From: Bryobacterales bacterium
Lineage (GTDB): Bacteria; Acidobacteriota; Terriglobia; Bryobacterales; UBA6623
Reading direction: 5' to 3'
Length of the DNA stretch: 64,000 bases
Assembly (NCBI GenBank): GCA_965238045.1
Contig: CBDEGU010000011.1
Location: 203,555 to 267,554, forward strand
Part shown: piece after piece, positions 17,496-63,040 of the stretch
Layout: each line of letters starts with the position of its first letter
How positions within the stretch are numbered: the stretch's first letter is position 1
Notes under the pieces: generated by a model
Database searches by the model: none
The model's input: only the letters and a program-made list of their open reading frames with translations
What the model was told of the DNA's origin: nothing
Position numbers and translations under genes: made by a program

Positions 17496-17614
17496 CTGGA
17501 ACATTTTAAGGATATGAAATAGACAACCCAGGGGGGGCTGCACAGCATCGGCGCCTCGGCCACGGCGAACGCATTTTCGGATAGGGGCTTATGTCATCAT
17601 TGCAAGTGCTCTAG
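17496..17614. repeat. diverged third copy of the type-1 hairpin repeat
   Basis: CTGGAACATTTTAAGG...GACAACCCAGGGGGGGCTGCACAGCATCGGCGCCTCGGCCACGGCGAACGCATTTTCGGATAGGGGC...GTGCTCTAG aligns along its length with 17133-17248, with many substitutions. Confidence 0.65.
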
Positions 17615-35609: not shown

Positions 35610-36326
35610 TCAGGTTGGCGTGCTGCCGCGGGACACCGCGAGGCTGGGATGGGCGGCCTTCCGAAAGACGCCTACAATCGATGCTCCAAAGTGACGGCCC
35701 AAGCCGGTTGTCCGCATGAAATCGTAGTATCCGCGGAAAAGCAAACGCCCCGCCGCAAAGCGGTCCGCGTAGGTGCACGGACTAAACTCGCGGGTTTGGA
35801 GATGTTCCACCGACAGGCTGCCTTGCCGGCCCATGCTGGCGAGCAGCGAGCGCCGATTCAAGCGATAGAACGTCGGGAAGATATCGTTTTCGTCCACTCC
35901 CATGGTGCGCTTCAGAATGGCTCGCTTGACCGCAACCGGGAGAACATGCGAGGTCAGGATGGCTGGATGCCATAAATTGGGTGTTAAGAAGACGAATCGC
36001 CCGCCCGGTTTGAGCACTCGTGTGATGTTGCGGAAGAATTCCGCGGGCGCCGGCACATGCTCCATGACATAACGGGCCAACACCAAATCCGCCGATTCGT
36101 TTTCGACCGGCCATCTTGACTCGCCGGTCAGCGGCACGAACCGGCTCAGGTGCGGGTTCGCGCGAGATGCGGGCGAGGGGTCAAGGCCAATCAGCGAAAT
36201 GCGCGGGTACTCGTCCCAAGGAAATGGCGCTATGTCGCCAGTACCGCAACCGATTTCGAGAATCGTCATGCTGGGGCGCAAGTACTTGGTGATGAGGCTG
36301 TGATATGTCTGCCAGTCGTTGAGCAC
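35610..36326 (-). CDS. class I SAM-dependent methyltransferase
   Basis: Motif I is ILEIGCGTGD, with LKPGGRFVF downstream. Confidence 0.8.
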   Translation of the reverse strand: MLNDWQTYHSLITKYLRPSMTILEIGCGTGDIAPFPWDEYPRISLIGLDPSPASRANPHLSRFVPLTGESRWPVENESADLVLARYVMEHVPAPAEFFRNITRVLKPGGRFVFLTPNLWHPAILTSHVLPVAVKRAILKRTMGVDENDIFPTFYRLNRRSLLASMGRQGSLSVEHLQTREFSPCTYADRFAAGRLLFRGYYDFMRTTGLGRHFGASIVGVFRKAAHPSLAVSRGSTPT

Positions 36327-40761: not shown

Positions 40762-41453
40762 CCGGTGGCTCGACCCTCCGCTTGGTCGGTTGGTGCCCAG
40801 GTAAACCCCTCATCGTCGCGCTTTGGCCAAGGATCTAGACTCAAATGTTTCGATGGGGAGGCCGATGAGTGCGTCTGTGTCCATGTGGGCGCCGCGTGAG
40901 TTCTTGGCGGGCGACGGTCGCGCCTGTCACGGCGTGCGGTTGAGCTGCGATCCGCGCCGCGCACTGCTCTGGCGCGTCGTCGCCGGATAGGTGCACTGGT
41001 TCATCGATCCCAAACGAGGATGGATCGAGTTCGGCGCCGACTAGGGAAAGCTCTCGCGTTTCATGGACGCGAACAGAAAGTGAGTGCTCGACTTGAACGA
41101 AGAGCAGACCGGGCATGGAGCGCCGGAGGTCGAGCCGCCCTTGATCCGCTGCCGCTCTCGGGCGCCAGCGCGGCTGGGCTTGCTGCAATCTGAATTGACT
41201 ATTCTAGTCAACCAGGTCAGAATAGATCCAACCGTTGATAAACCGTTTGAGTCGGGACCCGTTCGATGTATGCTGTGAGGATTTGGAGTATATTGGCGGC
41301 AAATGCCAGAGTCCGGATTGGCGCGCTCTCGCACCGCTGGCGACCGCTGCCAGGTGAGGCCGGACTGCCTGCGAATGGGTTGACTGGGCGTCTCGGCCCT
41401 GGCAGGCGCGGGGCTTCCCCGGCCGCCACGGGGGAGACCAAGCCGGCGGGCCC

Positions 41454-43076
41454 ATGGCTGGGGACGGGTCGCCGACGCCGCGCCTGGAGGGCAGACGGGG
41501 GCGAGCCCGGCTTGACTTTTTGGTGCCTTCCTTCTCCGATTGGGTCTTTGTCTCGATTCTGGCATGGTTGTTTTTTGGGTCGGCGGCGGCCACATCGCTG
41601 CTGGGCGACGGTGACACGGGCTGGCACATCCGGGCCGGCGAGTACATTCTGGAGACCGGAAAGTTTCCGCGTCATGACCTGTTTTCCTTCACGATGGAGG
41701 GCAGGGAATGGTTTGCCTGGGAGTGGCTCGCCGACGTGCTGTTCGCGGTTCTGCACTCGGCATTCGGCCTGAAGGGCATCTCGTTTCTCGGGGGCGTGGT
41801 CATCGCGGGGACGGCCGCCGGACTCTTCCGCTACATGGTGTGGAGAGGCGCGAACGTGCTGGTGGCGATGGTCGGCCTGTTCGTCGTTCTGTCGCCGTCG
41901 ATGCTGCACTGGCTGGCTCGCCCCCACATGTTCACTTGGGTTTTTCTGTTGATCACGCTATGGGTTCTTGAGGCCGACCGCCGGAAACCCACACGCTGGC
42001 TCTATGCGCTCGTGCCCCTCACGGTGGTATGGACGAACACGCACGGAGGGTTTGTCGCGCAACTCATAACGATCGGGATTTATTTCGCGGGCACAGGCGT
42101 GGAGGAGGTCTGGAACCGTCCGGCGAAGCAGACCGGCGACGGCCGCTGGCGACTTCCTCCGTCGTTCCGGCGGTATGGCCTGTTGCTGCTGTTGTGCTGT
42201 GGCGCCACTCTGATCAACCCCTACGGATATCAGCTGCACGTGCACATCGCGGCCTACTTGAGGTCGGACTTCATTCTCAAGGCCGTGCAAGAGTTTCAGG
42301 CCCCCGATTTTCGGGGCGAAGCCATGAAGGTTTTTGAATGCGTGCTGTTTCTGGCCATCCTGCTTGCGGCGAAGCTGCTGGCCCGCCGCGAGGTGGCGCG
42401 GGCTTTGTTGCTGCTTGCCTGGGCTCACGCCGCCGTGACATCGGTTCGCCATATTCCGCTGTTCATGCTGGTGGCCGGTCCCCTGCTGGCTAGCGAGGCA
42501 ACCCGATTGCTTGAGGCGGCGGGCAAGAGAGGCAACCAGTGGGTAAGGGTGCTGAACGAGATCGCCGCCGATTACAGCCCGCGGGGCGGCGGGCGCTTCG
42601 AGTCGAGGCCGTTCGCAGTGAGCTGGCTGAGTTTGGCGGCGATGGCGGCCTTGATGGTGCTGCTCCAGGTACGTGACGGCCAGGCTAGCTGGACAGCGGA
42701 GTTTCCTCCCGTGCGGTTTCCCGCGATGGCGTGCGACAACTTGGGCGAACGGCTGAAAGGAAGACGCGTGCTGAGCACGGACCAGTGGGGTGATTATGTG
42801 ATCTACCGCTTCTATCCCGAGCAGAAGGTTTTTATCGACGGCCGCAGTGATTTTTACGACCGTGAGGTTCTCGACGATTACATGGTCCTGCTCGGGGCGA
42901 CCTGGAGATGGGAAGAGGTTTTGAGCCGATATGAGTTCGAGGCCGTGCTCATACCCGTCGATTGGTCGCTGTCGGCGGTGCTAAAAACGCATCCGGAATG
43001 GTACCTGGCATATGACGATGGCACCGCGGTTTTCTTCGAGAGAGTACCTCCAAGCAGGAGAGAGGAAGGAAGCTAG
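41454..43076 (+). CDS. polytopic membrane protein, GT-C-like
   Basis: It is multi-TM. LLGDGDTGWHIRAGEYILETGKFPRHDLFSFTMEGREWFAWEWL is a motif I associate with uncharacterised GT-C-like membrane proteins. The start is uncertain. Confidence 0.5.
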   Translation: MAGDGSPTPRLEGRRGRARLDFLVPSFSDWVFVSILAWLFFGSAAATSLLGDGDTGWHIRAGEYILETGKFPRHDLFSFTMEGREWFAWEWLADVLFAVLHSAFGLKGISFLGGVVIAGTAAGLFRYMVWRGANVLVAMVGLFVVLSPSMLHWLARPHMFTWVFLLITLWVLEADRRKPTRWLYALVPLTVVWTNTHGGFVAQLITIGIYFAGTGVEEVWNRPAKQTGDGRWRLPPSFRRYGLLLLLCCGATLINPYGYQLHVHIAAYLRSDFILKAVQEFQAPDFRGEAMKVFECVLFLAILLAAKLLARREVARALLLLAWAHAAVTSVRHIPLFMLVAGPLLASEATRLLEAAGKRGNQWVRVLNEIAADYSPRGGGRFESRPFAVSWLSLAAMAALMVLLQVRDGQASWTAEFPPVRFPAMACDNLGERLKGRRVLSTDQWGDYVIYRFYPEQKVFIDGRSDFYDREVLDDYMVLLGATWRWEEVLSRYEFEAVLIPVDWSLSAVLKTHPEWYLAYDDGTAVFFERVPPSRREEGS

Positions 43077-43351
43077 CGATTCTGCGGATATTGGTTCGAT
43101 ATGAGCTGTGGGTGTTGTTGTTTATCTTGTTGATGTCAAATGGTTTATGAGTGTATCTAGGTTGATTTCTAAGAACTCGATGGAATGCAGTGGGTAGGTT
43201 CTCTTAGGCTGGCTTAAGTAATGATACTGGTGAAACCGCTGTCTTCGCAGGATACCCATGGGGTAGACCGATGATATATCTATGAAAGGGAGGGGTTTAG
43301 CATCCCTCTGGTGAAAACGGAACCGGTCGGCTCATCCGCGATGTCGCGGGT

Positions 43352-43359
43352 GGGGGGGG
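43352..43359 (+). repeat. G8 homopolymer directly upstream of the tadV reading frame
   Basis: tGGGGGGGGa, immediately before ATG 43360 and 28 nt before ATG 43387. Confidence 0.9.
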
Positions 43360-43386
43360 ATGGTCCGTGATGATGCGGGCGATACG

Positions 43387-43853
43387 ATGAAGTGGTTGTT
43401 CCTACTCTGTCTGGTAGTGGCGGTGCTGGCCTCGGCCGAGGATATTTGGCGGCGGCGAGTTTCCAACGCTGTGACCGCCGGGGCGTTTGCAGCCGGCGTG
43501 GCGCTGCGGTCCTGGTTGTTCGGTCTCGATGGGCTGTGGGATGCGCTGCTTGGCGCGGGGATTGGATTTGTGGTCTTCCTGGTTTTTTACTGGCTGGGCG
43601 GCATGGGGGGGGAGATATCAAACTCATGTCGGCGTTTGGAACGATCGTGGGAGGCAAACAAATTTTCCTGGCGGCTGTCTTGACAGGCATCATCGGCGCT
43701 ATGATGGCAGTAGCGTTCCTAGCGGTGCGCAAGCTTCGGCGGCTCGGTAGCTCCGATTCCGTGCCGGCGACTCCAGACCGCAAGATGATGATTCCCTACG
43801 CTCCCGCGATCAGCCTAGGGATGTTATTGACTTTCGCTCAATTTCTTGACTGA
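43387..43853 (+). pseudogene. tadV: A24-family prepilin peptidase TadV/CpaA, split by a frameshift in a G8 tract
   Basis: Frame A gives MKWLFLLCLVVAVLASAEDIWRRRVSN...FYWLGGMGG. Frame B gives GGGDIKLMSAFGTIVG...IPYAPAISLGMLL to TGA 43851-43853. One extra G in 43605-43612 would join them as LGGMGGGDIKLM. The two catalytic Asp motifs lie in different frames. Confidence 0.8.
43605..43612 (+). repeat. G8 homopolymer inside tadV at the frameshift point
   Basis: gcatGGGGGGGGagat. It was verified codon by codon against both track ORFs (43360-43683 and 43392-43853). Confidence 0.9.
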
Positions 43854-43862
43854 GGATGACTT

Positions 43863-44726
43863 ATGGACAAGCGTCTCTTGACAGTGATTGTAATGGCCGT
43901 GACGGTGGCTTTGGTCATCACGGCCATTTTTTACCAGATTACGGTGGCCCGCAAACCGTTGCAAGCCGAGGTGCCCCTTCGTGAACTCGTTGTCGCCAAG
44001 GTTGACCTGCCGATGGGTGCGGTGATTGGGGAGGACGACGTCCGAGTCTTGGACTATCCCGAGCAGCATTTCCCCAAGGGCGGGTTTTCGGCCATTGAGG
44101 ATGTTCTCGAGCGCTCGATCATCGACCGGGTGCTGGCTAACGAGCCCGTGCTGAGCGGGCGAGTGACAGAGAAGGGAGCCGGCTTCGGGCTTGCTCCGCT
44201 GATTCCAGAAGGAGAGCGAGCGATGGCCCTCGCGGTGAATCAAGTCAGCGGTGTTTCTGGCTTCGTCTTGCCGGGTTCGAAGGTGGATGTTCTCCTGACC
44301 GCGTCGCTTCCCGGTGTCACGAGCGAACGGATTACCGTGACGGTGATGGAAAACCTTACCGTTCTCTCGACGGGCAGTCGGCAGGAGCCCGATGCGCGCG
44401 GCCAGCCTCAGAACGTGCCGGTCGTCAATGTCCTGGTGACGCCGGAGAAAGCCGAATTGCTGACGCTGGCGGCGCGAGAGGGAACCATACAACTCGTGCT
44501 GAGAAATCCCGTGGATGATGAGATCGTCTCGGAGCACCGGCCGGGAACACGCACACGTGATCTGTTCGCCAAGTCGCGTCCGAAGAAGAGACCTGTGGCG
44601 CGTTTCAGAAGGTCCGGTCCCGCGGTCGTCACCGTGCCTGTTGCGCCTCCGCCCCCGCGCCAGGTAGAGATGATCCTAGGAAACGAAAAAAATATCGTAA
44701 CGTTGGCGTCGGTCCCGCCGAGATGA
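43863..44726 (+). CDS. cpaB: Flp pilus assembly protein CpaB/RcpC
   Basis: GAGGA RBS. The N-terminal TM is LLTVIVMAVTVALVITAIF. A SAF-like block follows (VVAKVDLPMGAVIGEDDV...NEPVLSGRV). Confidence 0.85.
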   Translation: MDKRLLTVIVMAVTVALVITAIFYQITVARKPLQAEVPLRELVVAKVDLPMGAVIGEDDVRVLDYPEQHFPKGGFSAIEDVLERSIIDRVLANEPVLSGRVTEKGAGFGLAPLIPEGERAMALAVNQVSGVSGFVLPGSKVDVLLTASLPGVTSERITVTVMENLTVLSTGSRQEPDARGQPQNVPVVNVLVTPEKAELLTLAAREGTIQLVLRNPVDDEIVSEHRPGTRTRDLFAKSRPKKRPVARFRRSGPAVVTVPVAPPPPRQVEMILGNEKNIVTLASVPPR

Positions 44727-44764
44727 ATCTTGTAATAACTCAAGGTGCTCGTATGTCACCCAGT

Positions 44765-44772
44765 CCCCCCCC
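44765..44772 (+). repeat. C8 homopolymer in the cpaB-cpaC spacer
   Basis: agtCCCCCCCCatg, abutting ATG 44773. Confidence 0.9.
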
Positions 44773-44872
44773 ATGACACTCAATCGACCTTATAAGCTGT
44801 CCAAGCCGCCGCGCGGCAGGGCCTGCCAGCCCCGGCGGATTACAGCTTGCGCGAGTTCTGATCGCGCTCTCC

Positions 44873-46177
44873 GTGGCCTGGTTCCTGATTCCGGGCGCTC
44901 TCAGGGCGGCGCCACCGCCCAATGGTGCGGCCGGTGACGAAATTCCGCTCACCGTTGGGCGATCGGTCGTACTGGACCACCCCGATGACATTGTGCGCAT
45001 TGCGATCACCGACCCAAACATTGTCGATGCCGTGCCCATTTCTACTCGCGAAATTCTGCTGAACGCGAAGAATCCAGGCCTGTCCACCTTGATCATATGG
45101 TCACGCTCGGGTGAGCGGAATTTCTTCACGATTTCGGTCAAAGTGAATGTAGAGCAGCTGCAGGACCATCTACAGACCGCGTTTCCCGGTGAGGCAATCC
45201 GGGTCAACGTGAGCAGGGGCGTAGCGACGCTGGATGGTAATGTGTCGAGTCCGGATGTCGTGGACCGAGCCGTCGCGATGGTCTCTGGCGCGGGCGCCGG
45301 AGCCGTCATCAACAATCTCCAGCTTCCGCCCCCTCCGGCGGAGCGGCAGATCCTCATAAAAGTAGTGTTCGCGGAATTTCAACGCAACGTGGCCCGTGAT
45401 TTTGCCGTGAATCTGGCCAGCACCGGAGCTCTGAACACTCCGGCCTCGATCACTACTCAGCAGGCCAGTCCGCCGCTGATCCAGTCTCTGGAAGGCACCA
45501 TTGGCGGCCGTCTCGAGGGTACCGCTACGACCTTTAATCTCCAAAACACGCTCAACATATTCGCGTTCCGTCCAGATCTCAATATCGGAGTGCTCATTCA
45601 GGCGCTGAAGGCGAAGAGTCTGGTCGAAATTCTCGCCGAGCCGAATATGATAACGACGTCGGGCAAGGCGGCGCGATTCCTGGTGGGCGGCGAATTCCCC
45701 GTGCCGATTTTGCAGGGAGGCGCGGGCGCCGGCGCGGTAACGATTCAGTTCCGCGAATTCGGCATTCGGCTGGACTTTCTTCCGGAACTCACCGAACGCG
45801 GTTCAATCAAGATGAAGATAAAGCCCGAGGTCAGCGCACTCGACTTCGCGAATGCCGTGCAGTTTTCGGGATTCTTGATTCCGGCCTTGTCGACCCGCAG
45901 GATCGACACCGAGGTTGAGCTCATGCCGGGCCAAAGCTTTGTGATTGGAGGGCTCATTGACAGCCGCGTTACCGAAACCGTCAACCGGATTCCCGGGCTG
46001 TCTAGCATCCCCCTGGTCGGCAGGATTTTCAGGAGCCACGCCAAGACCAAAACGAATACCGAGTTACTGGTCATCGTGACGCCCGAGTTTCCTGAGGTCA
46101 TCCAGGCGGGCGAGGACTTTCCCGACGTTCCCCGGCCGCTGCCGTTTCTGTCTCCAGTCACTGAGAAGGAGATGTAG
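44873..46177 (+). CDS. cpaC: CpaC/RcpA secretin (type II/III secretion system family)
   Basis: It has a BON-like N-domain. Secretin blocks are ILAEPNMITTSGKAARFLVGGEFPVP and IPGLSSIPLVGRIFRS. The start is uncertain: GTG 44873 is the first canonical in-frame start, but signal-peptide-like sequence extends upstream. Confidence 0.8.
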   Translation: MAWFLIPGALRAAPPPNGAAGDEIPLTVGRSVVLDHPDDIVRIAITDPNIVDAVPISTREILLNAKNPGLSTLIIWSRSGERNFFTISVKVNVEQLQDHLQTAFPGEAIRVNVSRGVATLDGNVSSPDVVDRAVAMVSGAGAGAVINNLQLPPPPAERQILIKVVFAEFQRNVARDFAVNLASTGALNTPASITTQQASPPLIQSLEGTIGGRLEGTATTFNLQNTLNIFAFRPDLNIGVLIQALKAKSLVEILAEPNMITTSGKAARFLVGGEFPVPILQGGAGAGAVTIQFREFGIRLDFLPELTERGSIKMKIKPEVSALDFANAVQFSGFLIPALSTRRIDTEVELMPGQSFVIGGLIDSRVTETVNRIPGLSSIPLVGRIFRSHAKTKTNTELLVIVTPEFPEVIQAGEDFPDVPRPLPFLSPVTEKEM

Positions 46178-46249: not shown

Positions 46250-47461
46250 ATGGCAGGAAGCGATTTTTCTAATCAAGCAGGTTTATCGGCGGTTCTGCTG
46301 TGTCCGAATCGAAGACTCGCGCAGCAGTTTGCCTCTGCTATTCCTGACCCACGGGCTCTTGCCATCGTAGCGGATATCAACGAGTATCCTTCACCCCAGA
46401 AGCTGGGCGATCGCCTGCGGCAGCAGCGATGCGACCTGATTCTCCTGGACTTGGGGACGGACACCGAACTGGCGCTGAAGCTCATTGCGGCGGTCGCGGC
46501 CCTGCGGCCGAAGATTCACGTCGTCGGCCTGCACGACGCGAATGACGCTGGCATCATCATCCGCTCGCTGCGGGCCGGGGCTACGGAATTTCTGTGTGCT
46601 CCATTCGACTTGGACTCGCTCAGCACCGTAATGACCCGCATCGTCCGCATGAGAGAAACCGCCGAGGGCGCGACGCAAGAACGGGGGCGCCTGTATGGGT
46701 TTACCGGAGCGAAGGCGGGCCAGGGCGCGACCACTTTGGCCTACAACCTGGCATTTTCGGCCTCCCAGGAGGAGGGCCGAAAGGTTCTGCTGATGGATGT
46801 CGACTTGCTCGGTGCAACCGTATCGTTCGCGCTTCGCCTCAAACACGCCTACAATCTGCTCGATGCGTTGCGCCACACCGAGAAACTCGACAAGGCCCTC
46901 TGGTCGGCGCTGATTACTTCCCAGGACAGCCTGGACGTTCTTCTGGGTCCAGAGCGTCCAGAGGTGGTGGCGGTCGACAATCAAGGCGTGTCGCAATTGA
47001 TCGCCTTTGTGCGCCGCGCCTACGATGTGATCGTCATCGATCTGCCCTGCGCCTACGAAAGCATCTCGCGAGCCCTGATTCCAGAAATCGATGAACTCTA
47101 TGTCGTCTCCAATCCCGAGTTGTCGTCGCTTCACATGGCTCGCAAGTGTCTGACGCATCTTGGGCAGGAAGGCCCGGGGGAAGGTCAAATTTCGCTGGTG
47201 ATTAACCGCATGCACCGGCGGCAGGAGCTGACGGCCCAGGACATAGAAAAAGTCTTCAATTTTCCGGTGGGTTATGTTTTTCCAGAAGACCACTTGGCGG
47301 CTCACAGGGCGCTCACGGCCGGAAAGCCGGTCGCCTTGAATACCGAACTCGGGCGCACGATACGGTCCTTTGGCAAGACGATCTTGGGCACCGGGGGCGA
47401 GAAGAAGAAAAAGAAGAGCGCCGGCGGGCTGAGTCTGACCGCGCTGTTGTCGAACGGGTAA
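46250..47461 (+). CDS. cpaE: CpaE/TadZ (receiver-like N-domain plus ParA/MinD-type ATPase)
   Basis: I prefer ATG 46250. The deviant Walker A region is GFTGAKAGQGATTLAYNLA. VIVIDLP and a receiver-like N-terminus are present. Confidence 0.8.
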   Translation: MAGSDFSNQAGLSAVLLCPNRRLAQQFASAIPDPRALAIVADINEYPSPQKLGDRLRQQRCDLILLDLGTDTELALKLIAAVAALRPKIHVVGLHDANDAGIIIRSLRAGATEFLCAPFDLDSLSTVMTRIVRMRETAEGATQERGRLYGFTGAKAGQGATTLAYNLAFSASQEEGRKVLLMDVDLLGATVSFALRLKHAYNLLDALRHTEKLDKALWSALITSQDSLDVLLGPERPEVVAVDNQGVSQLIAFVRRAYDVIVIDLPCAYESISRALIPEIDELYVVSNPELSSLHMARKCLTHLGQEGPGEGQISLVINRMHRRQELTAQDIEKVFNFPVGYVFPEDHLAAHRALTAGKPVALNTELGRTIRSFGKTILGTGGEKKKKKSAGGLSLTALLSNG

Positions 47462-47493: not shown

Positions 47494-48858
47494 ATGGCAC
47501 TACCACAGGAAATCGGCACGGCTTCGGATGTGGGATGGGAGGACCGCGTCCGGCGCGCCAGCACCGGGAGCCGTCTGACTCGGAATCCCGAATATCAGGA
47601 ATTGAAGTTTAAGCTCCACCGGCGTCTGCTTGACAAGATCAACCTGGAGGCGCTGGCGTCGATCGAGAATCAGAAAGTGCGCTCGGAAGTGCGCAATGCG
47701 CTGATGTCGCTGATCGACGAAGAGTCTACGCTGCTGAGTTCGCTGGAACGCCAGCAGATTTGTGACGAGGTGCTTGACGAAGTTTTTGGTCTTGGTCCGC
47801 TGGAACCGCTCCTTCAGTATCCGACCGTGAGCGACATTCTGGTCAATACGCATAAGCAAGTCTATGTTGAGCGAAAAGGTCAACTCGAGCTGACGAATGT
47901 CACATTCAAGGATGACGGGCATCTGCTGCGCATCATCGACAAAATCGTGTCCCAGGTCGGCCGGCGCGTGGATGAGTCCTCGCCGATGTGCGATGCTCGC
48001 CTTTCGGATGGTTCCCGCGTCAACGCCATCATCGCACCTCTGGCGGTGGACGGCCCGCTGCTGTCGATTCGGCGATTCAATAACGACAAACTGATGCCCG
48101 AGGATCTGGTCGCCTATCAGTCGATCACCGAGGGCATGCTGGAAATCATAAAAGCGTGTGTGCGCTCGCGGCTGAATATTATCGTGTCGGGCGGCACTGG
48201 TTCTGGAAAGACGACCATGCTCAACGCATTGTCGGCTTATATTTCTCCGAAAGAACGCGTTCTAACCATTGAGGATGCCGCCGAACTGCAGCTAAAGCAG
48301 CCCCATGTCGTCCGGCTGGAGACGCGGCCCCCCAACCTGGAAGGAGAAGGAGCGGTTCGGCAGCGCGAACTGCTGATCAACGCCTTGCGCATGCGCCCAG
48401 ACCGGATTGTGATTGGAGAGTGCCGTGGCGAGGAGGCGCTTGACATGCTGCAGGCCATGAACACTGGCCACGACGGCTCCATGACGACGATTCACGCCAA
48501 TACGCCGCGTGATGTCATCTCGCGTCTCGAGGTCATGGTCACCCTGGGAAGCAACATGCCGATCACGGCCATTCGCGGGCAGATTGCTTCGGCGGTGGAC
48601 CTCATCATTCAGTGTGAGCGATTGAGCGACGGGGCCAGGCGAGTCCGCAGTGTGACGGAAGTGACGACCATGGAAGGCGACATGGTCATGCTCCAAGACC
48701 TGTTTGTTTTTGAGAAGCTGGGCGTTTCTGGCGAGGGCAAGGTTCTAGGGCGATTCGCCGCCACCGGTATTCGTCCCCGATTCTACGAGAAGCTGCAGGC
48801 GGCGGGTCATCGCCTCGGGGCGGAGTTGTTTGAAGAGATCGTGGAAATCACGGAGTAA
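47494..48858 (+). CDS. cpaF: CpaF/TadA secretion ATPase
   Basis: Walker A is [10 protein letters not shown]. Also present are the Asp box, Walker [12 protein letters not shown] and the His box [13 protein letters not shown]. Confidence 0.9.
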
Positions 48859-48864
48859 TTCATC

Positions 48865-49839
48865 ATGGGTGGTTTATTGATCTTTTTCTTGTTTTTGGCG
48901 GGCGTCATGGTCTTCACCATCGTCATCGCCAACAACGTCATGCGAAAGCGTGATGTCGACCAGATGAAGGACTTGGTGTCTGGCAAGACCGCCGTGAGCG
49001 TTAGCGGCGCATCGGCCGGATCGGGTTCCCTCATGAAGGCGGAGCATGCCACGAAGCGGGACCGGGTGGCAAAGCTTGTGCTCGGCCGTGACTTGAACCA
49101 AAAGATGCGGGACTTGATCGAGCAGGCTGGAATGGACTGGGATCCGGCGCGGACGATGCTGGGAGCTTTGTTTCTCGCCGTCCTCGGGTTCAACCTGTTC
49201 TGGTATGTCGTTCCGCGTGGCCAACCCATCGCGGTCATCGGCGTCATCGTGGGCGGCGGCGCCCCATTCCTCTACATCTATAGCAAGCGAAAAAAACGCC
49301 TGTTCAAGTTTGAAGAGCAATTTCCGGATGCCCTAGAGTTTGTCGCCCGAGCTATGAGGTCCGGTCATGCCTTCTCGGTATCGCTCGAGATGCTGCACAA
49401 GGAGTTTCCCCCGCCTCTGTCCGACGAATTTCGGCGCACCTTCGAGGAACAGAATCTCGGACTGCCCCTGGATGTCGCCTTGGAGCGCCTTGGGACAAGG
49501 GTGCCCCTGCTGGATGTTCACTTCTTCGTCTCGGCGGTCTTGCTTCAGAAGAGAACAGGCGGCAATTTGGCCGCGCTCTTGGAAAATCTTGCTTATTTGA
49601 TGCGCGAACGCTTCAAGCTGCGCGGAAGAATTCGGGCGATCAGCGCCCATGGCCGAATCTCGGGCCTTGTTCTCTCCATGATTCCAATGGCCGTCGCCTT
49701 GATGATGTTTGTTACGAACCCGGAATATGTTCTATTTTTCCTGGATGACCCGGACGGCAAGATCATGCTGGCCGCCTGTATCTTCCTGCAACTTCTCGGG
49801 TTCATTTCCATTCGTAAGATTACCGACATTGGAGTGTGA
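48865..49839 (+). CDS. tadB: TadB (type II secretion system F-domain membrane protein)
   Basis: The T2SS-F-type block is FPDALEFVARAMRSGHAFSVSLEML...LDVALERL, with flanking TM helices. Confidence 0.85.
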   Translation: MGGLLIFFLFLAGVMVFTIVIANNVMRKRDVDQMKDLVSGKTAVSVSGASAGSGSLMKAEHATKRDRVAKLVLGRDLNQKMRDLIEQAGMDWDPARTMLGALFLAVLGFNLFWYVVPRGQPIAVIGVIVGGGAPFLYIYSKRKKRLFKFEEQFPDALEFVARAMRSGHAFSVSLEMLHKEFPPPLSDEFRRTFEEQNLGLPLDVALERLGTRVPLLDVHFFVSAVLLQKRTGGNLAALLENLAYLMRERFKLRGRIRAISAHGRISGLVLSMIPMAVALMMFVTNPEYVLFFLDDPDGKIMLAACIFLQLLGFISIRKITDIGV

Positions 49840-49876
49840 CTTATGAGTGCGATGGTGGCATCGGTTTTCTTGTTTA

Positions 49877-50913
49877 GATGGGTATTCACTTGACTCAGGT
49901 ATTTTGAAATGGCCCCTACATGTTGTGGTTGTCCGTAGCGCGTGTTGCGGCGCCTCCGACCAGCGACTTGTAGGGCGCCGGTTGGACGGCGACGGCCTGC
50001 TGAACCAGGCGGTAGAAGAGCTTGCCTCGGCTTCTGGACTTGCGGCGGTTGAAGCGGAAGGTGAATTCGTCGAGGTAGTAGTCGAGATGCTCGTGGCTGA
50101 CGGCTCCTTGATGCGTACCCAGTATCCAACGCTTCAGTAACGACACCACGCGATGCACGCGGGGGAGCAGTTGAGAGGCTCGTGCCGGTTGCCCGTCCAG
50201 GTAGCTCACCTCGTGGCGATAGCCGTCGCTTTCGAGTGGCTCGTATCCCAGCCAGCCGTCCGTGTGGACCACGCTGCCGGGTTCGACCGACTCGCCGACG
50301 AAGGCCATCAAGCTGTCCCCAGAGGCGTTCGGAATCGTGCGCATCCGAACTCGTCCGATGCCGGCGCCATCTTCCTCGGCCGCTACTACAATCAGCGCTT
50401 TCGCGTCGGTTTGGCGGCCCCGCACGCCCTCCTCCAGGGCTCCTAAGTAAGTCTCGTCAACCTCAACGCGCCCGCTGAGGCGATCACGTCCGGGCCGCAC
50501 CATAGCGCGCCGAAGCTTGTGCAACCAAGTCCAGGCCGTCTTGTAGCTGCCCAGGCCCAACACCCGCTGCAATCCCAATGCACTCGCCCCGTTCTTCTGG
50601 CTGGTGAGCCACCACATTGCTCGAAACCAACTCTGGAGCGGCTTGCGGGTGTCTTGAAAGATTGTGCCTGCTGTCGCCGAAGCTTGATGCCCGCAGCTTG
50701 CACACTGCAGCAGCACCGTGCGCACCGCCCAGGTTTTGTCATGCCCGCATCGCGGACAACGAAAACCCTCCGGCCAGCGGAGTTGACACAGATACTCCCG
50801 ACAGGCCTGCTCGCTAGCGAAACGCGCCTCGAACTCGGCCAAATTCCGGGGATAATCTTCCATCGCCCAAGATCCTACATCTTGGGGTCACCTGAGTCAA
50901 GTAAATACCCATC
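49877..50913 (-). mobile_element. IS1595-family insertion sequence (1037 bp) with 8-bp target-site duplication
   Basis: The 24-bp IRs are GATGGGTATTCACTTGACTCAGGT (49877-49900) and the complement of 50890-50913, with 1 mismatch. The perfect direct repeats CTTGTTTA are at 49869-49876 and 50914-50921. Confidence 0.9.
49916..50863 (-). CDS. IS1595 family (ISXO2-like) transposase
   Basis: The N-terminal zinc ribbon is ACREYLCQLRWPEGFRCPRCGH...CASCGH. A DDE region follows, with VEVDETYLG and HTDGW. Confidence 0.9.
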   Translation of the reverse strand: MEDYPRNLAEFEARFASEQACREYLCQLRWPEGFRCPRCGHDKTWAVRTVLLQCASCGHQASATAGTIFQDTRKPLQSWFRAMWWLTSQKNGASALGLQRVLGLGSYKTAWTWLHKLRRAMVRPGRDRLSGRVEVDETYLGALEEGVRGRQTDAKALIVVAAEEDGAGIGRVRMRTIPNASGDSLMAFVGESVEPGSVVHTDGWLGYEPLESDGYRHEVSYLDGQPARASQLLPRVHRVVSLLKRWILGTHQGAVSHEHLDYYLDEFTFRFNRRKSRSRGKLFYRLVQQAVAVQPAPYKSLVGGAATRATDNHNM

Positions 50914-52167
50914 CTTGTTTATTCTGATCGCGATTCTCTTGGGGACGGTGGGTTTCAAGTTTTGGGTCCAGCCCAAGGCCGCCTTGGAACGGGTCGTTGG
51001 CGAAGTGGAGCTGGGCGACCAAATCGTCAGGCATCCGAGTCTGTCGTTTCGTACGCTGCTAGCCAAGATTGGCACTGTGGTGCCACAAAACCCGACCGAT
51101 GTCGGTATTCAACAGCGCAAGCTTCTTACCGCCGGATTCCGCAGCGCCTATGCGCTCAAGGTGCTTTACGGGATTAAGGGAGCCATGGCGCTAGCTATGA
51201 CGATTGTCAGTGCGGGCGTCGTGTTCGGGTTTGAAATGCAGGGCGAGATGACATTTTTTCAGATCCTGGCTGCCGGGGCGCTGGGATGGTCGTTGCCGAA
51301 CTTTGTCGTCGGCCGGATGGTCTCAAAGCGGCAGGCGAATCTCAGGAAAGGTCTGCCAAACGCGCTAGACATGCTCGTGATTTGCGTGGAGTCCGGTCTT
51401 GGATTGGACCAGGCGCTCATGCAAGTAAGTAAGGAATTGCATTTGGCGCACCCGGAGATCAGCGACGAATTCGCCATCATGAATCTGGAGATGCGAGCCG
51501 GAAAGAAGCGCGCCGATGCGTTGCACAACCTGGGGGAAAGAACCGATGTCGACGAACTCAAGAAAATGGTCAGCGTGCTGGTGCAAGCCGACCGTTTCGG
51601 CACCAGTATTTCTCAGACCCTGCGTAATTTTTCGGATTACATGAGAGTTCAGGCCCGCCAGATCGCCGAGGAGAAGGCTGCGAAGATCGGCGTCAAATTA
51701 GTGTTCCCGATCTTCTTTTTCATTCTCCCTTCTCTCTTTGTTGTTACGGTCGGCCCGATGATGGTTCGCGTCATGAGAGACTTCTTGCCGCAGTTGGCGC
51801 TCTGAGAGATGAGGAGACCGGAAGCCTGGTTTGCCGGGAGCCTTGGGAAGCGGCGTTGGAGCAAGAAAGGCCGCGTCGCAGGACGGCAGGAGTTGTGTGA
51901 ATGCTGAACGTCACGGGAGCGGTCTTCGCGCCTTGGCGGTTCCGCGGACCGCTGAAGAACTGTGGTGAGGCCGGCGCCTAAGGCGCCAGCGAATTTGGAA
52001 ATAGGAGACATACCAGCAGGTGATCCCATCCGCGAGATGTGTTCGCGGTCTGCGTGGCCGGGATTGTAGCTGAGTCAACGATGTCGGGTCCCCCCGCACC
52101 CTGACGCAGAGACGCCAGCAGCTGTGGGCGAGCAGGAATACCTGCATGCCCGACGAGGTGCGACAAA

Positions 52168-55100
52168 GTGACTATGACTGTGTGGAAAGTGAGGAAGACC
52201 AATAGACAATACTCCCCGGTTGCGCTGAGTGCGTTTCTGGCGGGCTGGCTCTTGCTCTGTTGTCTGGGGCCAGAGCAGGTTCTGGGCCAGACGGCCGTCT
52301 CTCGTCTCGGCACGGTCATTCCATTGCCGGGGCATATCAGCGAGCTTGTCGTTGATGAGGCGCGCGGCCAGATTTATGCCGCCAACTTCAGCGCCGGGCG
52401 GGTCGAGGTGGTGTCGATGACGACGCGGCGGAGGCTGGGGTCCATTCTGACCAGCTCGTCGCCGTCCGCGATTACGGCGATGGCCATGACGCACGACAGC
52501 CGTTTTTTGGTCGTCACAAGCGTTCCGGTAAGCGAGACGCCCGGTTCGACGGTGACCGTCATCAACCTCAATGACCCCGGTGACCGGCGGTTTTATACCG
52601 TCGTGGATCGGCCGCTCGCGATGGCCTTCGGGGCCAACGGCGAAGGCCTGTTCGTCACTGCTGGCGGCTTTCAGATCTTCGATCCGGCCACCGGCACGTT
52701 CACCGATGTGTTCAGCTTCGGTGATGGCTCGAGCGACGATGTCGACCTGCCCGTCCCGATGCCGACCTTTCCCCGTGAAGTCGTCTTTGCAAGCGCGGCG
52801 GCCTCGCGGGACGGCAAACTGATCTACGGCGTGACCGATGTCTTTGTCTACTCCTTTCAGGTCGGTCTCTCGAGATTAACCATCCGGCCCATCGAGACCA
52901 TCATCACGCCTCCCGTCTTTTCGCAGGCCAGCACCGCCGACGACGGCAGCTATTTCATGGCTGGCCAGTTGCTCTTCAATAAGCGCCTCTCGGTTCTGGC
53001 GGATACCCTGGAGACCGGCGGAGCGGGCATGCTCATCGGCGGTCACGTCATCGACAGCGAAATCGACACGGTCTATGCCGCCTTCGACGTGGCCGTGGCA
53101 GGGCTGCCGGGTCAGACGCCTGGCGCCGTGCTCAACGTCATGGACGCGGATAATCTGTTCGTGCGGGAGCGCTTCATGCTCCCCGAGCAAGTCACTGGCA
53201 GGCTGGCTCTTGCCTCCGGCGGCAACGAGATATACGCCGTGACCGAATCCGGCCTGACGCATATACCGCTTGGGAACCTCGATGGCTATCCGCAACTTGA
53301 GGTGAAGGCGGAAGACCGCAATTTGTTGTTCCAGTTTGACTTCTGTTCGCAAGGCACCCAGACCCGCGTCTTGCGCCTGGAGAGTCCCGACGGCAGCTCA
53401 GCGTCGTTCCGGCTCTCGGCCACCGACATGGACGGCTTACCGGCATTCGGCATTTCTTTTGAGCCGAGCCAGGGCCAGACTCCCGCCGAAGTGCAAGTCA
53501 CCGTCGCGCCTTCCGCGGTTGGCAATGCTCAGGGAACCGCGGAGTTCCTGGTAGGCATCGAGACCGACGCGGTCAACATCCCAAATACTTCACGGCTCTT
53601 TGTCAATGTCCGCGATCTGGATCAAAAGGGAATTTTCCACGAAATGCACGGACGATTCGTTGATATCGTCGCGGATCCGGTGCGCAGCCGCTTCTATGTT
53701 CTCGACCAGGAATCTTTTCTGGTGCATATGTTTGACAGCGATACCTTCCGCTTGCTGGGAAGTTTTCGAACCGGAAACACCCCTACCTGGATGACCATCG
53801 GGAACCTGGGGAAGTTCCTGATCATCGCAAATTCCCAGGCGGAGACTCTCACCTTCGTGGACCTCTATACGTTGACGAAGTTCGGTGACGTGCTGCTGCC
53901 TTGGCAGGTGCTTAAGGATGGGCATTATCCGAGGAGCGTGGCCACCGACAATTCCTCGGTGCTGATCCTGTCGAAGACACCGGACGAAGGGGAGGTGTCG
54001 AAGCTTGCCGTCACCTTCCGCGGCGTCCGCACGCCGTCGACGCTCGGCATTTTTGAAAATTCCGTCTCCCCCGAAACCGCGCTCGTGTCGCTGCCGGACC
54101 GCTCCGGTATTTTCTTCGCGTCAAGCAGCGGCACCGTCGCCCTCTGGGAGGCCTTGACGCCAACCACGTCAAAGATTATCCTGTCTCGCAGTGACCTTTC
54201 CGGTCTCGAGGGCGCGATTGGCGCCGGCTCCGACTTTTTCGTGGCCGGCAGTCATCTGCTGAATTCCTCTCTGGTGCCTCAATTCGAGTTCGATGACGCC
54301 TCCGCGGGCATGGAGTCGACCGGTTTTACCGTGACGCGGGACGGTACCGCGATCCGATCGCTGCGTCCCGTCTCGACCGTGGACTCGGGCAGCCTGCGGC
54401 GGTTTGATCCGCGCGATCCCCGGATCTTGGACTCGCCGGTGAGAATCGTGGAAACGCCGCCGGCCATCACCCGTGCCTTTCCGTTTATCCGAACCCTGGC
54501 GGCACTGTCCAACGGAAAGCTGGCGTCCACCGGAACGGCCGGCATCGTCGAGCTTCCCGTCGAGTTCGATAAGAATCTCCAGAGTCCGCGCATCACGGCG
54601 ATCGTCAACAGCGCGAACTTTACGACGGCTGCCGCGGTGGGCGGGCTGATCAGTCTGTTCGGCGAGAACCTGGCCGCACAGGAGGTTTCCGCCGGCACGA
54701 CTCCCTTGCCCACGACGCTGGGCGGCACTTGTGTGTCTATGAACGGGTTGAGTCTTCCGCTGGTCTATGTGTCCCCTGGTCAGATCAATGCTCAGGCCAG
54801 TTTTAGCATTGCCGGCGACCTTGCCACGGTCGTTCGCAACCCGGGAGGACTGAGCAATATCTTCATCAGCACGGTCTCGCTTTCGGCGCCGGCGGTCTTT
54901 AGCGTGGAGCATCCCAGTGAGGAGACCCTGCTCAAAGCGGTGTTCCGGCTGAAGAATAATCAACTGGCCACGCTTTCCAATCCCTTCCGGCACAACGAAA
55001 TCGGCGTCATCTTCGCTACCGGGCTTGGGTCCGTGACCCCGATTGGGATCGACGGGTATCCCGCGGCGCCCGAACCGCTCTCTATCACCACCGTCGATCC

Positions 55101-55284
55101 GGTCATTACGGTCGGCGGCGAGACAGCTCCCATACTGTATTCGGGTTTGGCTCCCGGTTTTGTCGGACTCTACCAGATCAATTTCATCGTGCCGATCGGA
55201 GCACCGACAGGTCTGCAAGTTCCTTTGGTCGTAACTGGCAGCACCTCGACGGACGGGTTCTTTATCCGAATCGTCGAAGAGTAA
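52168..55284 (+). CDS. large secreted beta-propeller-repeat protein with Solibacter-type C-terminal domain
   Basis: Signal peptide. There are repeated YVTN-like strands (QIYAANFSAGRVEVVSM, SRFYVLDQESFLVHMFD, GKFLIIANSQAETLTFVDL). The C-terminus LPLVYVSPGQINAQ...ILYSGLAPGFVGLYQINFIVP matches my recollection of the TIGR03437 (Soli_cterm) pattern. Confidence 0.75.
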   Translation: MTMTVWKVRKTNRQYSPVALSAFLAGWLLLCCLGPEQVLGQTAVSRLGTVIPLPGHISELVVDEARGQIYAANFSAGRVEVVSMTTRRRLGSILTSSSPSAITAMAMTHDSRFLVVTSVPVSETPGSTVTVINLNDPGDRRFYTVVDRPLAMAFGANGEGLFVTAGGFQIFDPATGTFTDVFSFGDGSSDDVDLPVPMPTFPREVVFASAAASRDGKLIYGVTDVFVYSFQVGLSRLTIRPIETIITPPVFSQASTADDGSYFMAGQLLFNKRLSVLADTLETGGAGMLIGGHVIDSEIDTVYAAFDVAVAGLPGQTPGAVLNVMDADNLFVRERFMLPEQVTGRLALASGGNEIYAVTESGLTHIPLGNLDGYPQLEVKAEDRNLLFQFDFCSQGTQTRVLRLESPDGSSASFRLSATDMDGLPAFGISFEPSQGQTPAEVQVTVAPSAVGNAQGTAEFLVGIETDAVNIPNTSRLFVNVRDLDQKGIFHEMHGRFVDIVADPVRSRFYVLDQESFLVHMFDSDTFRLLGSFRTGNTPTWMTIGNLGKFLIIANSQAETLTFVDLYTLTKFGDVLLPWQVLKDGHYPRSVATDNSSVLILSKTPDEGEVSKLAVTFRGVRTPSTLGIFENSVSPETALVSLPDRSGIFFASSSGTVALWEALTPTTSKIILSRSDLSGLEGAIGAGSDFFVAGSHLLNSSLVPQFEFDDASAGMESTGFTVTRDGTAIRSLRPVSTVDSGSLRRFDPRDPRILDSPVRIVETPPAITRAFPFIRTLAALSNGKLASTGTAGIVELPVEFDKNLQSPRITAIVNSANFTTAAAVGGLISLFGENLAAQEVSAGTTPLPTTLGGTCVSMNGLSLPLVYVSPGQINAQASFSIAGDLATVVRNPGGLSNIFISTVSLSAPAVFSVEHPSEETLLKAVFRLKNNQLATLSNPFRHNEIGVIFATGLGSVTPIGIDGYPAAPEPLSITTVDPVITVGGETAPILYSGLAPGFVGLYQINFIVPIGAPTGLQVPLVVTGSTSTDGFFIRIVEE

Positions 55285-62865: not shown

Positions 62866-63040
62866 CGGACGAACGCCGATGTGACGCTCGTGGCCAGTTT
62901 GAGCCCACTCGCCCCCTAGATCTATCAGTGACTCCCTCTAGGTAAGGTCAAGAAAACACCGTAATACTCGGAGTTCGAAGCACACGTGACAGGCGTCCGG
63001 TGAAGGAAGCCGAAGCTATTCCCCCCCTGCGCGGCCACTC

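Follow-up and report, generated by a model that had tools for sequence, protein, structure and literature searches.

Does a run of eight G residues inside the prepilin peptidase gene tadV switch a Tad pilus on and off, or does it mark an operon in decay or a fault in the assembled sequence? The question is raised by a 64-kb stretch of a genome from an uncultured clade of Acidobacteriota (Bryobacterales/Solibacter-like), hereafter the window, which carries genes in the order tadV-cpaB-cpaC-tadZ-cpaF-tadB-tadC (Table 1). All Pfam matches lie above threshold and the cluster is canonical; three of its seven genes, tadV, cpaC and tadC, are disrupted in the window. No Flp-type pilin gene (G/XXXXEY motif) was found in the six frames of the window or in the gaps flanking the operon, and the flp gene may be located elsewhere in the genome. 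The tadV tract is probably the product of operon decay, or of a base missed in calling a slippery homopolymer, with no dedicated switch involved.

Table 1. Features of the tad operon region, in window coordinates
Feature	Position	Strand	Evidence or remark
Leader 5' of tadV	43154..43314	+	97-100% identity among relatives (alignment)
Upstream G8 tract	43352..43359	+	28 nt 5' of the conserved tadV start codon
tadV/cpaA, A24 aspartic protease, frameshifted	43387..43853	+	Pfam match after repair, alignment
Internal tadV G8 tract	43605..43612	+	1 G short of in-frame G9; relatives ATG GGG GGG GGA
cpaB/rcpC, intact	43863..44726	+	PF16976 RcpC 1.2e-25; same 287-aa product on other contigs
cpaC start region: ATG 44753 (used in relatives), C8 44765-44772, ATG 44773, TGA 44774-76	44753..44776	+
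cpaC/rcpA secretin body	44777..46177	+	PF00263 Secretin 9.9e-42, T2SS-T3SS_pil_N, BON
C4 in cpaC signal-peptide coding region, +1 frameshift	44830..44833	+	closest in-frame relatives C3
tadZ/cpaE, ParA-like ATPase, receiver-like N-terminus, intact	46250..47461	+	L004 gene of equal length, dN/dS 0.19
cpaF/tadA secretion ATPase, intact	47494..48858	+	PF00437 T2SSE 5.1e-60; dN/dS 0.10
tadB, T2SSF platform protein, intact	48865..49839	+	PF00482 6.9e-16
tadC, first 11 codons (MSAMVASVFLF), severed by IS	49843..49876	+	comparison with L004 TadC
IS1595-family IS, 1,037 bp	49877..50913	-	315-aa transposase 49916-50863
tadC, remainder	50914..51805	+	PF00482 7.9e-21

The tadV frameshift and the homopolymer runs

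Once repaired, TadV proves to be a short peptidase of the A24 type that lacks a methyltransferase domain; its two Asp residues, D19 and D77, are invariant in an alignment of 28 TadV sequences. In the window the gene is split between two frames that meet exactly at the internal G8, as the initial annotation had described. Frame A (43387-43611, MKWLF...FYWLGGMGG) starts at ATG 43387, or at ATG 43360; frame B (GGDIKLMSAFG..., to the stop at 43853) is reached by one extra G and holds the second catalytic Asp. The tract corresponds to the codon run GGG-GGG-GGA, which encodes the Gly residues of an invariant Met-Gly-Gly-Gly directly 5' of the second catalytic Asp codon. Two tract lengths, G9 and G6, restore the frame, again in agreement with the initial reading, and the 155-aa product of the G9 repair matches Peptidase_A24 (PF01478) end to end (8.8e-17, residues 7-108) and is 100% identical to database protein P0001. 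The missing G truncates TadV ahead of Asp77 and the C-terminal membrane segments, and judging from this frameshift the product would be non-functional. The tract is slippage-prone, and its length (G8, G9 or G11) sets the reading frame.

The initial annotation counted three 8-nt G/C runs at the head of the operon and gave 7 nt as the maximum elsewhere, which is exact for the 64-kb window: the two G8 tracts and the C8 tract of Table 1 are the only G/C runs of at least 8 nt, followed by G7 at 17531-17537 and C7 at 63021-63027. Their number is not above chance (3 observed against 4.19 ± 2.89 expected, with at least three in 66 of 100 dinucleotide-preserving shuffles), and the clustering alone is unusual, nominally so, the three runs falling inside 1,421 nt with P≈0.0015 under uniform placement of three points in a test chosen post hoc. 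For the tadV tract itself, a G9 has a chance of about 3.6% from codon usage, GGG making up 19% of Gly codons. A G run of at least 8 occurs in none of 77 other tadV genes that share the GMGGGD motif, and one sub-lineage of the clade has extended its tract to G11 without interrupting it.

The second G8 indeed lies directly upstream of tadV, within the 70 nt of the intergenic region that are least conserved. The strain-group contigs L001, L015 and L100-L104 share it with the window at constant length; other lineages carry GGGGGTAG, GGGGGGAG, GTGTGCGGGG or GTGCGTGGGG at this site. A role as a promoter-spacer switch was rejected, since the tract is unconserved and shows no length variation, and no sigma-70-like promoter, nor any terminator, was detected within 42950-43450. 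The leader 5' of tadV holds a hairpin (GAGGGG-TTTAGCAT-CCCTC) and a 10-codon mini-ORF, and no Rfam family reached the gathering threshold anywhere in the window, leader included. Such tract conservation as there is in the operon follows from the shallow divergence of the clade, whose dS of 0.11-0.23 is too low for maintenance of a repeat to show.

The third run, C8, adjoins ATG 44773 as reported. Its assignment to a cpaB-cpaC spacer did not survive comparison with relatives, which place the tract between two in-frame ATGs (44753 and 44773) of the secretin ORF, where it encodes Pro-Pro-Pro (ATG TCA CCC AGT CCC CCC CCC ATG, leading in frame into a secretin of 474-481 aa). From ATG 44753 the window reads MSPSPPP*, the C8 bringing TGA 44774-76 into frame. 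The three clustered tracts do not behave as a unit: the upstream G8 is strain-specific and the C tract is constant in 15 relatives.

Lesions elsewhere in the operon and in sister lineages

Beyond its start region, cpaC carries one extra C in the signal-peptide coding region. This C4 is common to the window and two independent assemblies, L015 and L016, whereas the in-frame contigs L100-L103 have C3. The additional C throws both candidate start codons out of frame with the secretin body, whose own frame is open with GTG 44873 as the first canonical start, which would truncate the signal peptide. No length of the C tract gives cpaC an in-frame start (C8, C9 and C10 all fail), and the C8 was rejected as a cpaC switch in the window: C8 and C11 lead to TGA 44774, C9 to a 61-codon dead end, and C7 and C10 to TAA.

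The interruption of tadC is due to an IS1595-family element. Its transposase matches PF12762 (DDE_Tnp_IS1595, 4e-30) and PF12760 (N-terminal zinc ribbon, 2.8e-14), its termini are 24-nt inverted repeats with 96% complementarity, and it is flanked by an 8-bp target-site duplication, CTTGTTTA, at 49869-76 and 50914-21. The family assignment rests on the transposase, zinc ribbon, inverted repeats and duplication together with the empty site in relatives: the element is present at this position in L015 and absent in L002-L004 and L100-L103, and in silico excision of the IS together with one of the two duplicated octamers yields a 305-aa TadC. A second copy of the element lies in a methyltransferase gene of L015; in L002 and L003 a further copy is located upstream.

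Closely related contigs carry different damage in the same 8-kb operon, amounting to at least six kinds of lesion and three different IS insertions. An IS interrupts cpaB in L002 and L003; L100 and L101 have a nonsense codon in cpaC; L100, L101 and L103 have a +1 frameshift in tadC; and L102 and L103 carry a 1.6-kb IS in cpaC, with an IS256-type element in L102 as well. L015 has two stop-creating SNPs, both in the identical context GAGNAGCTGCAGG. L004 retains an intact seven-gene operon. The tadV gene shows a dN/dS of 0.16 against that of L004, and values for the operon across the clade range from 0.10 to 0.33, which indicates that it was functional until recently.

The locus is best described as a Tad pilus operon that appears to be in recent decay, with sister lineages carrying their own independent lesions. 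With an IS in tadC and the extra C in cpaC, restoring G9 would not restore a pilus in the window's genome. The operon there is probably already non-functional, and in that case the tadV frameshift gates nothing. The proposal that an ON/OFF switch in the peptidase gates the whole Flp pilus is thus not sustained for this genome, given these two lesions, the exclusive occurrence of −1 alleles described below and the independent behaviour of the tracts.

Origin of the missing G

The tadV tract was compared in 24 related contigs and the C tract in 15 relatives. The tadV tract is in frame in 21 of the 24 (G9 in 15 and G11 in 6), among them near-identical contigs with 99.5-99.9% identity to the window. 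L001 and L016 (99.8-99.9%) differ from it only by one more G in the tadV tract and one SNP each and, in L016, by one more C in the C tract. In the same strain group, L015 and L100-L104 are all G9, and all are C9-equivalent except L104, which ends short of the C tract; the C9-equivalent length is found in every one of the 15 relatives. Compared with near-identical contigs, the window lacks exactly one base in each 9-mer, and within its strain group this deviation is found in the window alone. The comparison of tract lengths in related strains that the initial annotation proposed shows length differences in tadV, where the frameshift falls exactly at a slippage-prone run, and none in the C tract of the 15 relatives.

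A deficit of one base at both 9-mers, set against near-identical contigs, is the signature of a homopolymer under-call. Such an error would be in keeping with the presumed 909-kb source contig, on which the 107-aa and 75-aa fragments of the window's TadV are both found and whose size is typical of long-read metagenome assembly; at runs of up to 8 nt the window and its relatives agree. Elsewhere the window gives no sign of faults: across about 20 kb of alignment to relatives, frame-breaking indels in clearly coding DNA are confined to tadV and the 5' end of cpaC. A 1-nt difference at 35653, near the 3' end of a gene, is common to L015 and not window-specific, and a difference of +2 G at 41430 is unlike an under-call. 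Further frameshifts considered at overlapping ORF pairs (12.7-15.2, 22.2-24.0 and 59.7-62.2 kb) were rejected, these being intact adjacent genes with full-length domains.

Under-calling is not universal, seven other long-read-type contigs from the same population giving both 9-mers as 9. Alleles of −1 also occur in assemblies of short-read type. Counting the window, −1 alleles are present in 3 of 25 DNA contigs, and P0125 adds another through its protein product. They arose independently in at least two other lineages, one represented by L097 and P0125 (G8) and the other by L098 (G10, sample SAMN17320297, where sister samples of the same study have G11). L097 and P0125 have MEGAHIT-style k141 contig names, and all three look like short-read assemblies. 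Independent −1 alleles in such assemblies indicate that real slippage occurs, so that the G8 of the window is not necessarily an error; the tadV tract is a real mutational hotspot. The sequencing-error alternative raised at the outset fits the shortfall at both 9-mers. On balance we lean slightly towards an under-call, and away from a real slippage deletion, for the missing G and the missing C. Gapped-pattern scans for TACTGGCTGGGCGGCATGGGGGG N1-12 ATCAAACTCATGTCGGCGTT, allowing any tract length, returned no matches in GTDB representatives or JGI metagenomes, neither of which includes the clade.

Under the reading that we favour, codon choice in this shallow clade would have produced a run of 9 nt (11 in one sub-lineage) that is normally in frame. 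In the window the run would have come to be one G short, truncating TadV, either through an under-call in a long-read assembly or through a slippage deletion at the hotspot under relaxed selection.

It is improbable that loss of the pilus was itself recurrently advantageous, in which case the lesions of the tad operon, a genuine G9→G8 deletion among them, would have been selected and the homopolymer would simply be the easiest target. Escape from pilus-dependent phages or a shift from attached to planktonic life are possible drivers. The variety of lesions in one 8-kb operon across close contigs speaks for such selection, as do the mostly intact genes flanking the operon in the window and the purifying selection that acted until recently. 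Against this, IS elements are active elsewhere in these genomes, as the copies in the L015 methyltransferase gene and upstream in L002 and L003 attest; several point lesions in low-coverage long-read contigs, such as the L015 SNPs in their shared context, may be errors; and selection for loss fails to explain why both 9-mers changed in the window alone.

It is unlikely that the tadV tract (G9 or G11), and maybe the C9 of cpaC, are contingency loci at which slippage reversibly switches the Tad pilus, with the window as an OFF/OFF line; correspondingly, there is little prospect that the head of this clade's Tad operon holds true contingency loci, a G9/G11 before the catalytic Asp and a C9 in the secretin signal-peptide region. 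If it did, the window, L097 and L098 would be natural OFF variants. The independent −1 alleles in three or four lineages, the G10 among G11 sister samples, the restriction of the tract to this clade with its extension to G11, and the clustering of the runs at the 5' end of the operon all speak for such a system, and the position of the catalytic Asp just 3' of the tract is ideal for a null phenotype. L098 is also the sole OFF allele with intact visible neighbours, its downstream cpaB and secretin appearing intact as a pure OFF variant would require. Several observations weigh on the other side. Only −1 alleles are on record, with no +1 or −2 tadV product in a database of 5.8 billion proteins. 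The OFF alleles that can be judged carry irreversible lesions: the IS and cpaC +1 in the window, and a Gly→Asp substitution at an invariant Gly in both L097 and P0125 (two assemblies). In every other member of the dead-operon strain group the tracts stand at 9 despite up to 1.5% divergence, and thus show no hypermutability over such a timescale. No length polymorphism is seen among the 15 relatives in the C tract, which lies between two in-frame ATGs, so that slippage there could be bypassed. The upstream G8 is unconserved, tract conservation follows from the low dS, and the number of 8-mers is unenriched.

Decoding of the G8 by −1 ribosomal frameshifting or transcriptional slippage into full-length TadV, for which the G-rich X XXY YYZ run at the shift site and the −1 direction required might be cited, is rejected as exceedingly improbable, since the frameshift is not conserved and 21 of 24 relatives, near-identical contigs included, read TadV in one frame; besides, transcriptional slippage as known works best on runs of A or T and poorly on runs of G.

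Comparison with known systems

Homopolymeric contingency loci include Neisseria pilC, with poly-G in its signal-peptide region, surface genes of Campylobacter jejuni with their poly-G tracts, and the Bordetella fim promoters with a poly-C tract. The locus described here resembles them in having an 8-11-nt G/C run inside an appendage-biogenesis gene, where a change of ±1 gives a null allele and length varies among relatives, and the second tract lies in a secretin signal-peptide region, positioned much like that of pilC. It differs in that neither reversibility nor +1 alleles were seen, the OFF alleles that could be judged are linked to irreversible lesions, and the tracts are stable in the strain group; moreover, the Gly codons of a catalytic motif account for the tadV tract, and the window shows no enrichment of such runs. 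A literature search gave nothing specific on phase variation by homopolymers in Acidobacteria or at tad loci, and in the library searched no contingency loci were found described for the phylum. Were the tract a true switch, contingency-locus biology would reach a major soil phylum, with no earlier description of homopolymer phase variation in that phylum or for a TadV peptidase, and slippage would give rise to pilus-OFF subpopulations that are heritable and reversible; on present evidence this is unlikely.

In gene order, Pfam domains and the short A24 TadV/CpaA, the cluster matches the Tad/Flp (type IVc) operons known as tad in Aggregatibacter actinomycetemcomitans and cpa in Caulobacter crescentus, from which it differs by the absence of a flp pilin gene in the window and the disruption of three of seven genes. 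Annotation of this contig should accordingly flag tadV, cpaC and tadC as disrupted.

Decay or an under-call at a slippery site, our preferred reading, has its own parallels. A report on A. actinomycetemcomitans (PMC9239275) describes rough-to-smooth conversion on culturing, in which non-adherent variants emerge. Such cultured strains, and IS-rich bacteria that have recently shifted niche, share with the present operon multiple independent lesions, active IS elements and purifying selection until recent times. Here, by contrast, the organisms are uncultured environmental Acidobacteriota known from metagenome contigs. One natural population holds the same Tad operon undamaged in some contigs and, in others, disrupted in no fewer than six ways, through three different IS insertions, nonsense codons and frameshifts, among them one at the homopolymer hotspot within the active-site motif of the peptidase, and could be used to ask whether pilus loss is neutral or selected, be it by phage or by a change of lifestyle.

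The tadV frameshift and the homopolymer tracts of the window

The G8 tract at 43605–43612 lies inside tadV, the prepilin peptidase gene that opens a canonical Tad/Flp pilus operon. From its ATG at 43387, tadV reads MKWLF...FYWLGGMGG and then passes into a short out-of-frame tail; with one G added, the frame runs on as GDIKLMSAFG... up to the stop at 43853. The G9-repaired product (155 aa) is a full-length match to Pfam Peptidase_A24 (8.8e-17), and alignment of 28 homologues shows Asp19 and Asp77 to be invariant, with Asp77 directly after the tract. The frames, the family match and the alignment confirm the initial annotation's account of a gene split at G8 with its second catalytic Asp beyond the tract.

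Coordinates of the tad operon genes and of the inserted element (window positions)
Feature	Position	Remarks
tadV	43387–43853
cpaB	43863–44726
cpaC secretin	ends 46177
tadZ	46250–47461
cpaF	47494–48858
tadB	48865–49839
tadC		last gene of the operon; split by the IS1595-family element
IS1595-family element	49877–50913	transposase on minus strand; 1,037 bp; splits tadC after codon 11

The window (G+C 61.4%) contains exactly three G or C runs of at least 8 nt, namely G8 at 43352–43359, G8 at 43605–43612 and C8 at 44765–44772; a computational scan agrees here with the earlier count by eye, the next longest runs being 7 nt (17531–17537 and 63021–63027). Their number is ordinary (3 observed versus 4.19 ± 2.89 in dinucleotide shuffles) and not above chance; their sole unusual aspect is clustering, since all three fall inside 1,421 nt (P≈0.0015 in a post hoc test). 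The upstream G8 (43352–43359) has the same length across the strain group (L001, L015, L100–L104 and the window), other lineages reading GGGGGTAG, GGGGGGAG or GTGTGCGGGG, and it falls in the 70 nt of the leader that are least conserved, the rest of the leader being strongly conserved. This leader (43154–43314) is 97–100% identical among relatives, compared with a 3–8% difference in coding DNA. It contains a GAGGGG-TTTAGCAT-CCCTC hairpin, with a possible compensatory extension in the related contig L011, and a 10-codon mini-ORF (MKGRGLASLW); it has no Rfam match and possibly acts as a small RNA or as a regulatory 5' UTR.

Tract lengths in related contigs

A protein search identified a shallow clade sharing at least 92% TadV identity, and 24 related contigs were retrieved; the database contains a protein 100% identical to the G9-repaired TadV, and the nearest named TadV genes, from Bryobacterales/Terriglobia MAGs, share at most 54% identity. 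The tadV tract is G9 in 15 of the 24 contigs and G11, which arose through a synonymous GGA→GGG change, in six, leaving 21 in frame. L001 and L016, Logan assemblies of runs ERR14231557 and ERR14231558, are 99.8–99.9% identical to the window and differ from it solely by one additional G in the tadV tract, one additional C in the C tract (L016) and one SNP each. L015 and L100–L104 likewise have G9, and a C9-equivalent length wherever the C tract is covered. Tract length does vary among related sequences (G8, G9, G10 and G11); within the strain group it is G9 except in the window. The 15 relatives that span the C tract all show one length for it, with an A interruption in L008 and a T→C extension in L015 leaving that length unchanged.

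In 77 other tadV genes that encode the same GMGGGD[IV]K motif, the maximum G run length is 3 nt in 52, 4 in seven, 5 in 11, 6 in six and 7 in one; none reaches 8, so the long tract is derived in the window's clade. GGG accounts for 19% of glycine codons, and GGG-GGG is expected in ~3.6% of lineages from codon usage alone; synonymous divergence in the clade (0.11–0.23) is too low to demonstrate selection maintaining the tract.

A search of a 5.8-billion-protein database with the window's truncated TadV, including its out-of-frame tail, returned one cluster with three such products. One (P0124) is the window's own, encoded on a 909,478-bp NCBI/ENA contig that also bears the 75-aa 3' fragment P0133; the others (P0121 and P0125, 98 aa) belong to another lineage and are 95% identical to it. 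The DNA of P0121, contig L097 with a MEGAHIT-style k141_ name, has G8 together with GGC→GAC at an invariant glycine, a second, irreversible defect of this L097/P0125 lineage besides the −1 allele. Another contig, L098, reads CAT-G10-ATATC, one base below the in-frame G11 allele of L004–L009; its tadV sequence type otherwise has G9 (L011), and its cpaB and 481-aa secretin are intact. The tail of a +1 (or −2) slip product had no match in the same database. From these sequences, −1 alleles recur independently at the tadV tract, in short-read-looking assemblies, the opposite direction not being seen. A 104-aa tadV product from a 6.7-kb ENA contig (P0129) has the window strain's C-terminus and an out-of-frame N-terminal stretch, MRCLARGLDLWSSW, which implies a separate frameshift a little upstream, near a T6 run at 43583–88.

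Further lesions in the tad operon

In relatives, cpaC starts ATG TCA CCC AGT CCC CCC CCC ATG..., in frame with a secretin of 474–481 aa whose signal peptide reads ...LQLARVLIALS..LRA/APPP. In the window, the ATG at 44753 runs into TGA 44774 and the ATG at 44773 is in a different frame from the gene body; cpaC is without a usable start. Within the signal-peptide region, the closest in-frame relatives (L100–L103) read CAG CCC GGC GGA, and the window, L015 and L016 read CAG CCC CGG CGG, a +1 C (44830–44833, C4 versus C3). With C9 (L015, L016), each ATG leads into a 61-codon dead-end frame; C8 plus C4, as in the window, restores the net frame, but with the in-frame TGA in between; and with C7 or C10 a TAA is reached. 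No length of the C tract rescues cpaC.

The element in tadC, which like the cpaC defect escaped the initial annotation, has 24-nt inverted repeats and an 8-bp target duplication (CTTGTTTA at 49869–76 and 50914–21), and its in silico excision yields a perfect 305-aa TadC. L015 shares this insertion and carries a second copy, 99.7% identical, in a methyltransferase gene (window 35978–85), so the element is active in the window's lineage. No flp pilin gene turned up in the window, nor a Flp-type pilin ORF (G/XXXXEY motif) in any frame; with the Tad system otherwise complete, the pilin must be atypical or encoded elsewhere.

All seven tad genes are intact in L004, and dN/dS between L004 and the window is 0.10–0.33 for every tad gene; the operon thus appears to have been functional until recently and to be undergoing repeated loss. 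The most useful by-product is a catalogue of independent tad lesions within one natural population. In L002 and L003, an IS1595 element distinct from the window's (73% identical) interrupts cpaB near codon 23 and also occurs upstream of cpaB; L100 and L101 have cpaC Q230*; L100, L101 and L103 share a tadC +1 frameshift; L102 and L103 contain a 1,607-bp IS in cpaC at about window 45800, with a 414-aa integrase-like transposase ORF; and L102 has an IS256-type transposase between cpaC and tadZ. In L015 (8x coverage), two stop-creating substitutions matching window 45155 and 48790 share the context GAG-N-AGCTGCAGG, N→T each time, which suggests that both are products of a systematic miscall near a CTGCAG site, perhaps methylation-related, and not genuine nonsense mutations.

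Two large proteins border the operon in conserved synteny: a 1,038-aa protein (52168–55284) that combines beta-propeller-like repeats with a "Solibacter C-terminal domain" (TIGR03437, 6e-52), and a 540-aa protein (41454–43076) without Pfam or NCBIfam match. The Solibacter domain and the Bryobacterales/Terriglobia TadV matches mark the organism as an uncultured acidobacterium. At 41138–41193, the window and L015 lack ~1.2 kb that L005 and L100–L103 carry between a PMT_2 glycosyltransferase gene and the 540-aa gene, comprising a methyltransferase gene and a family-2 glycosyltransferase gene.

Interpretation and comparison with known systems

The tadV tract is a slippery glycine-codon run in the catalytic motif, one base short in the window within an operon already inactivated by two other lesions. 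The missing G (and C) is slightly more likely to be a homopolymer under-call than a real deletion. Both 9-mers, and nothing else, are exactly 1 nt short relative to every relative, near-identical contigs included; no other sequence has a shortened C tract, and the window comes from a long contig of the kind typical of long-read assembly. In every other dead-operon contig the tracts are still 9 nt long, despite divergence of up to 1.5%, which makes it improbable that real slippage struck twice on the window's very short terminal branch. The window is not error-ridden in general: other suspicious ORF pairs proved to be intact genes, frame-breaking indels in clearly coding sequence are confined to tadV and the cpaC 5' end across ~20 kb aligned to relatives, and the single-nucleotide difference at 35653, close to a methyltransferase gene's 3' end, occurs in L015 too.

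A real deletion is nearly as probable as an under-call: seven other long-read-type contigs have their 9-mers called right, other lineages also carry −1 alleles, tadV is under relaxed selection in this genome, and at least one further indel is private to the window. This indel, at 41430, is G5 (GGGGGAG) versus G3 in L015, L005, L006 and L100–L103, a +2 about 20 nt upstream of the ATG at 41454, in the ribosome-binding-site region, and is unlike a homopolymer under-call.

True, reversible phase variation is improbable. The initial annotation proposed a switch gating the entire Flp pilus; the tract frameshift and the −1 alleles elsewhere stand, but the operon is dead through the tadC insertion and the cpaC +1, so in this genome the tract cannot serve as a master ON/OFF switch for a functioning pilus. 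The in-frame orthologues exclude recoding of G8. The feature itself is real; the switch reading is overstated. It is a frameshift at a homopolymer, or a miscall there, within a decaying operon, a known kind of event in a fresh instance.

The poly-G tract in the signal-peptide region of Neisseria pilC and the poly-G tracts of Campylobacter are classic homopolymer contingency loci. The window's locus has a formal likeness of arrangement to these; on the points that matter, its operon carries other lesions, length change is seen in the −1 direction only, and within the strain group the window alone departs from G9. In the literature library searched, there was no paper on homopolymer switching of tadV, nor on such switching in Acidobacteria. 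A comparable case of decay is A. actinomycetemcomitans, in which non-adherent smooth variants emerge on culturing (PMC9239275). Decay through IS elements and frameshifts fits the window's locus better than a contingency locus does.
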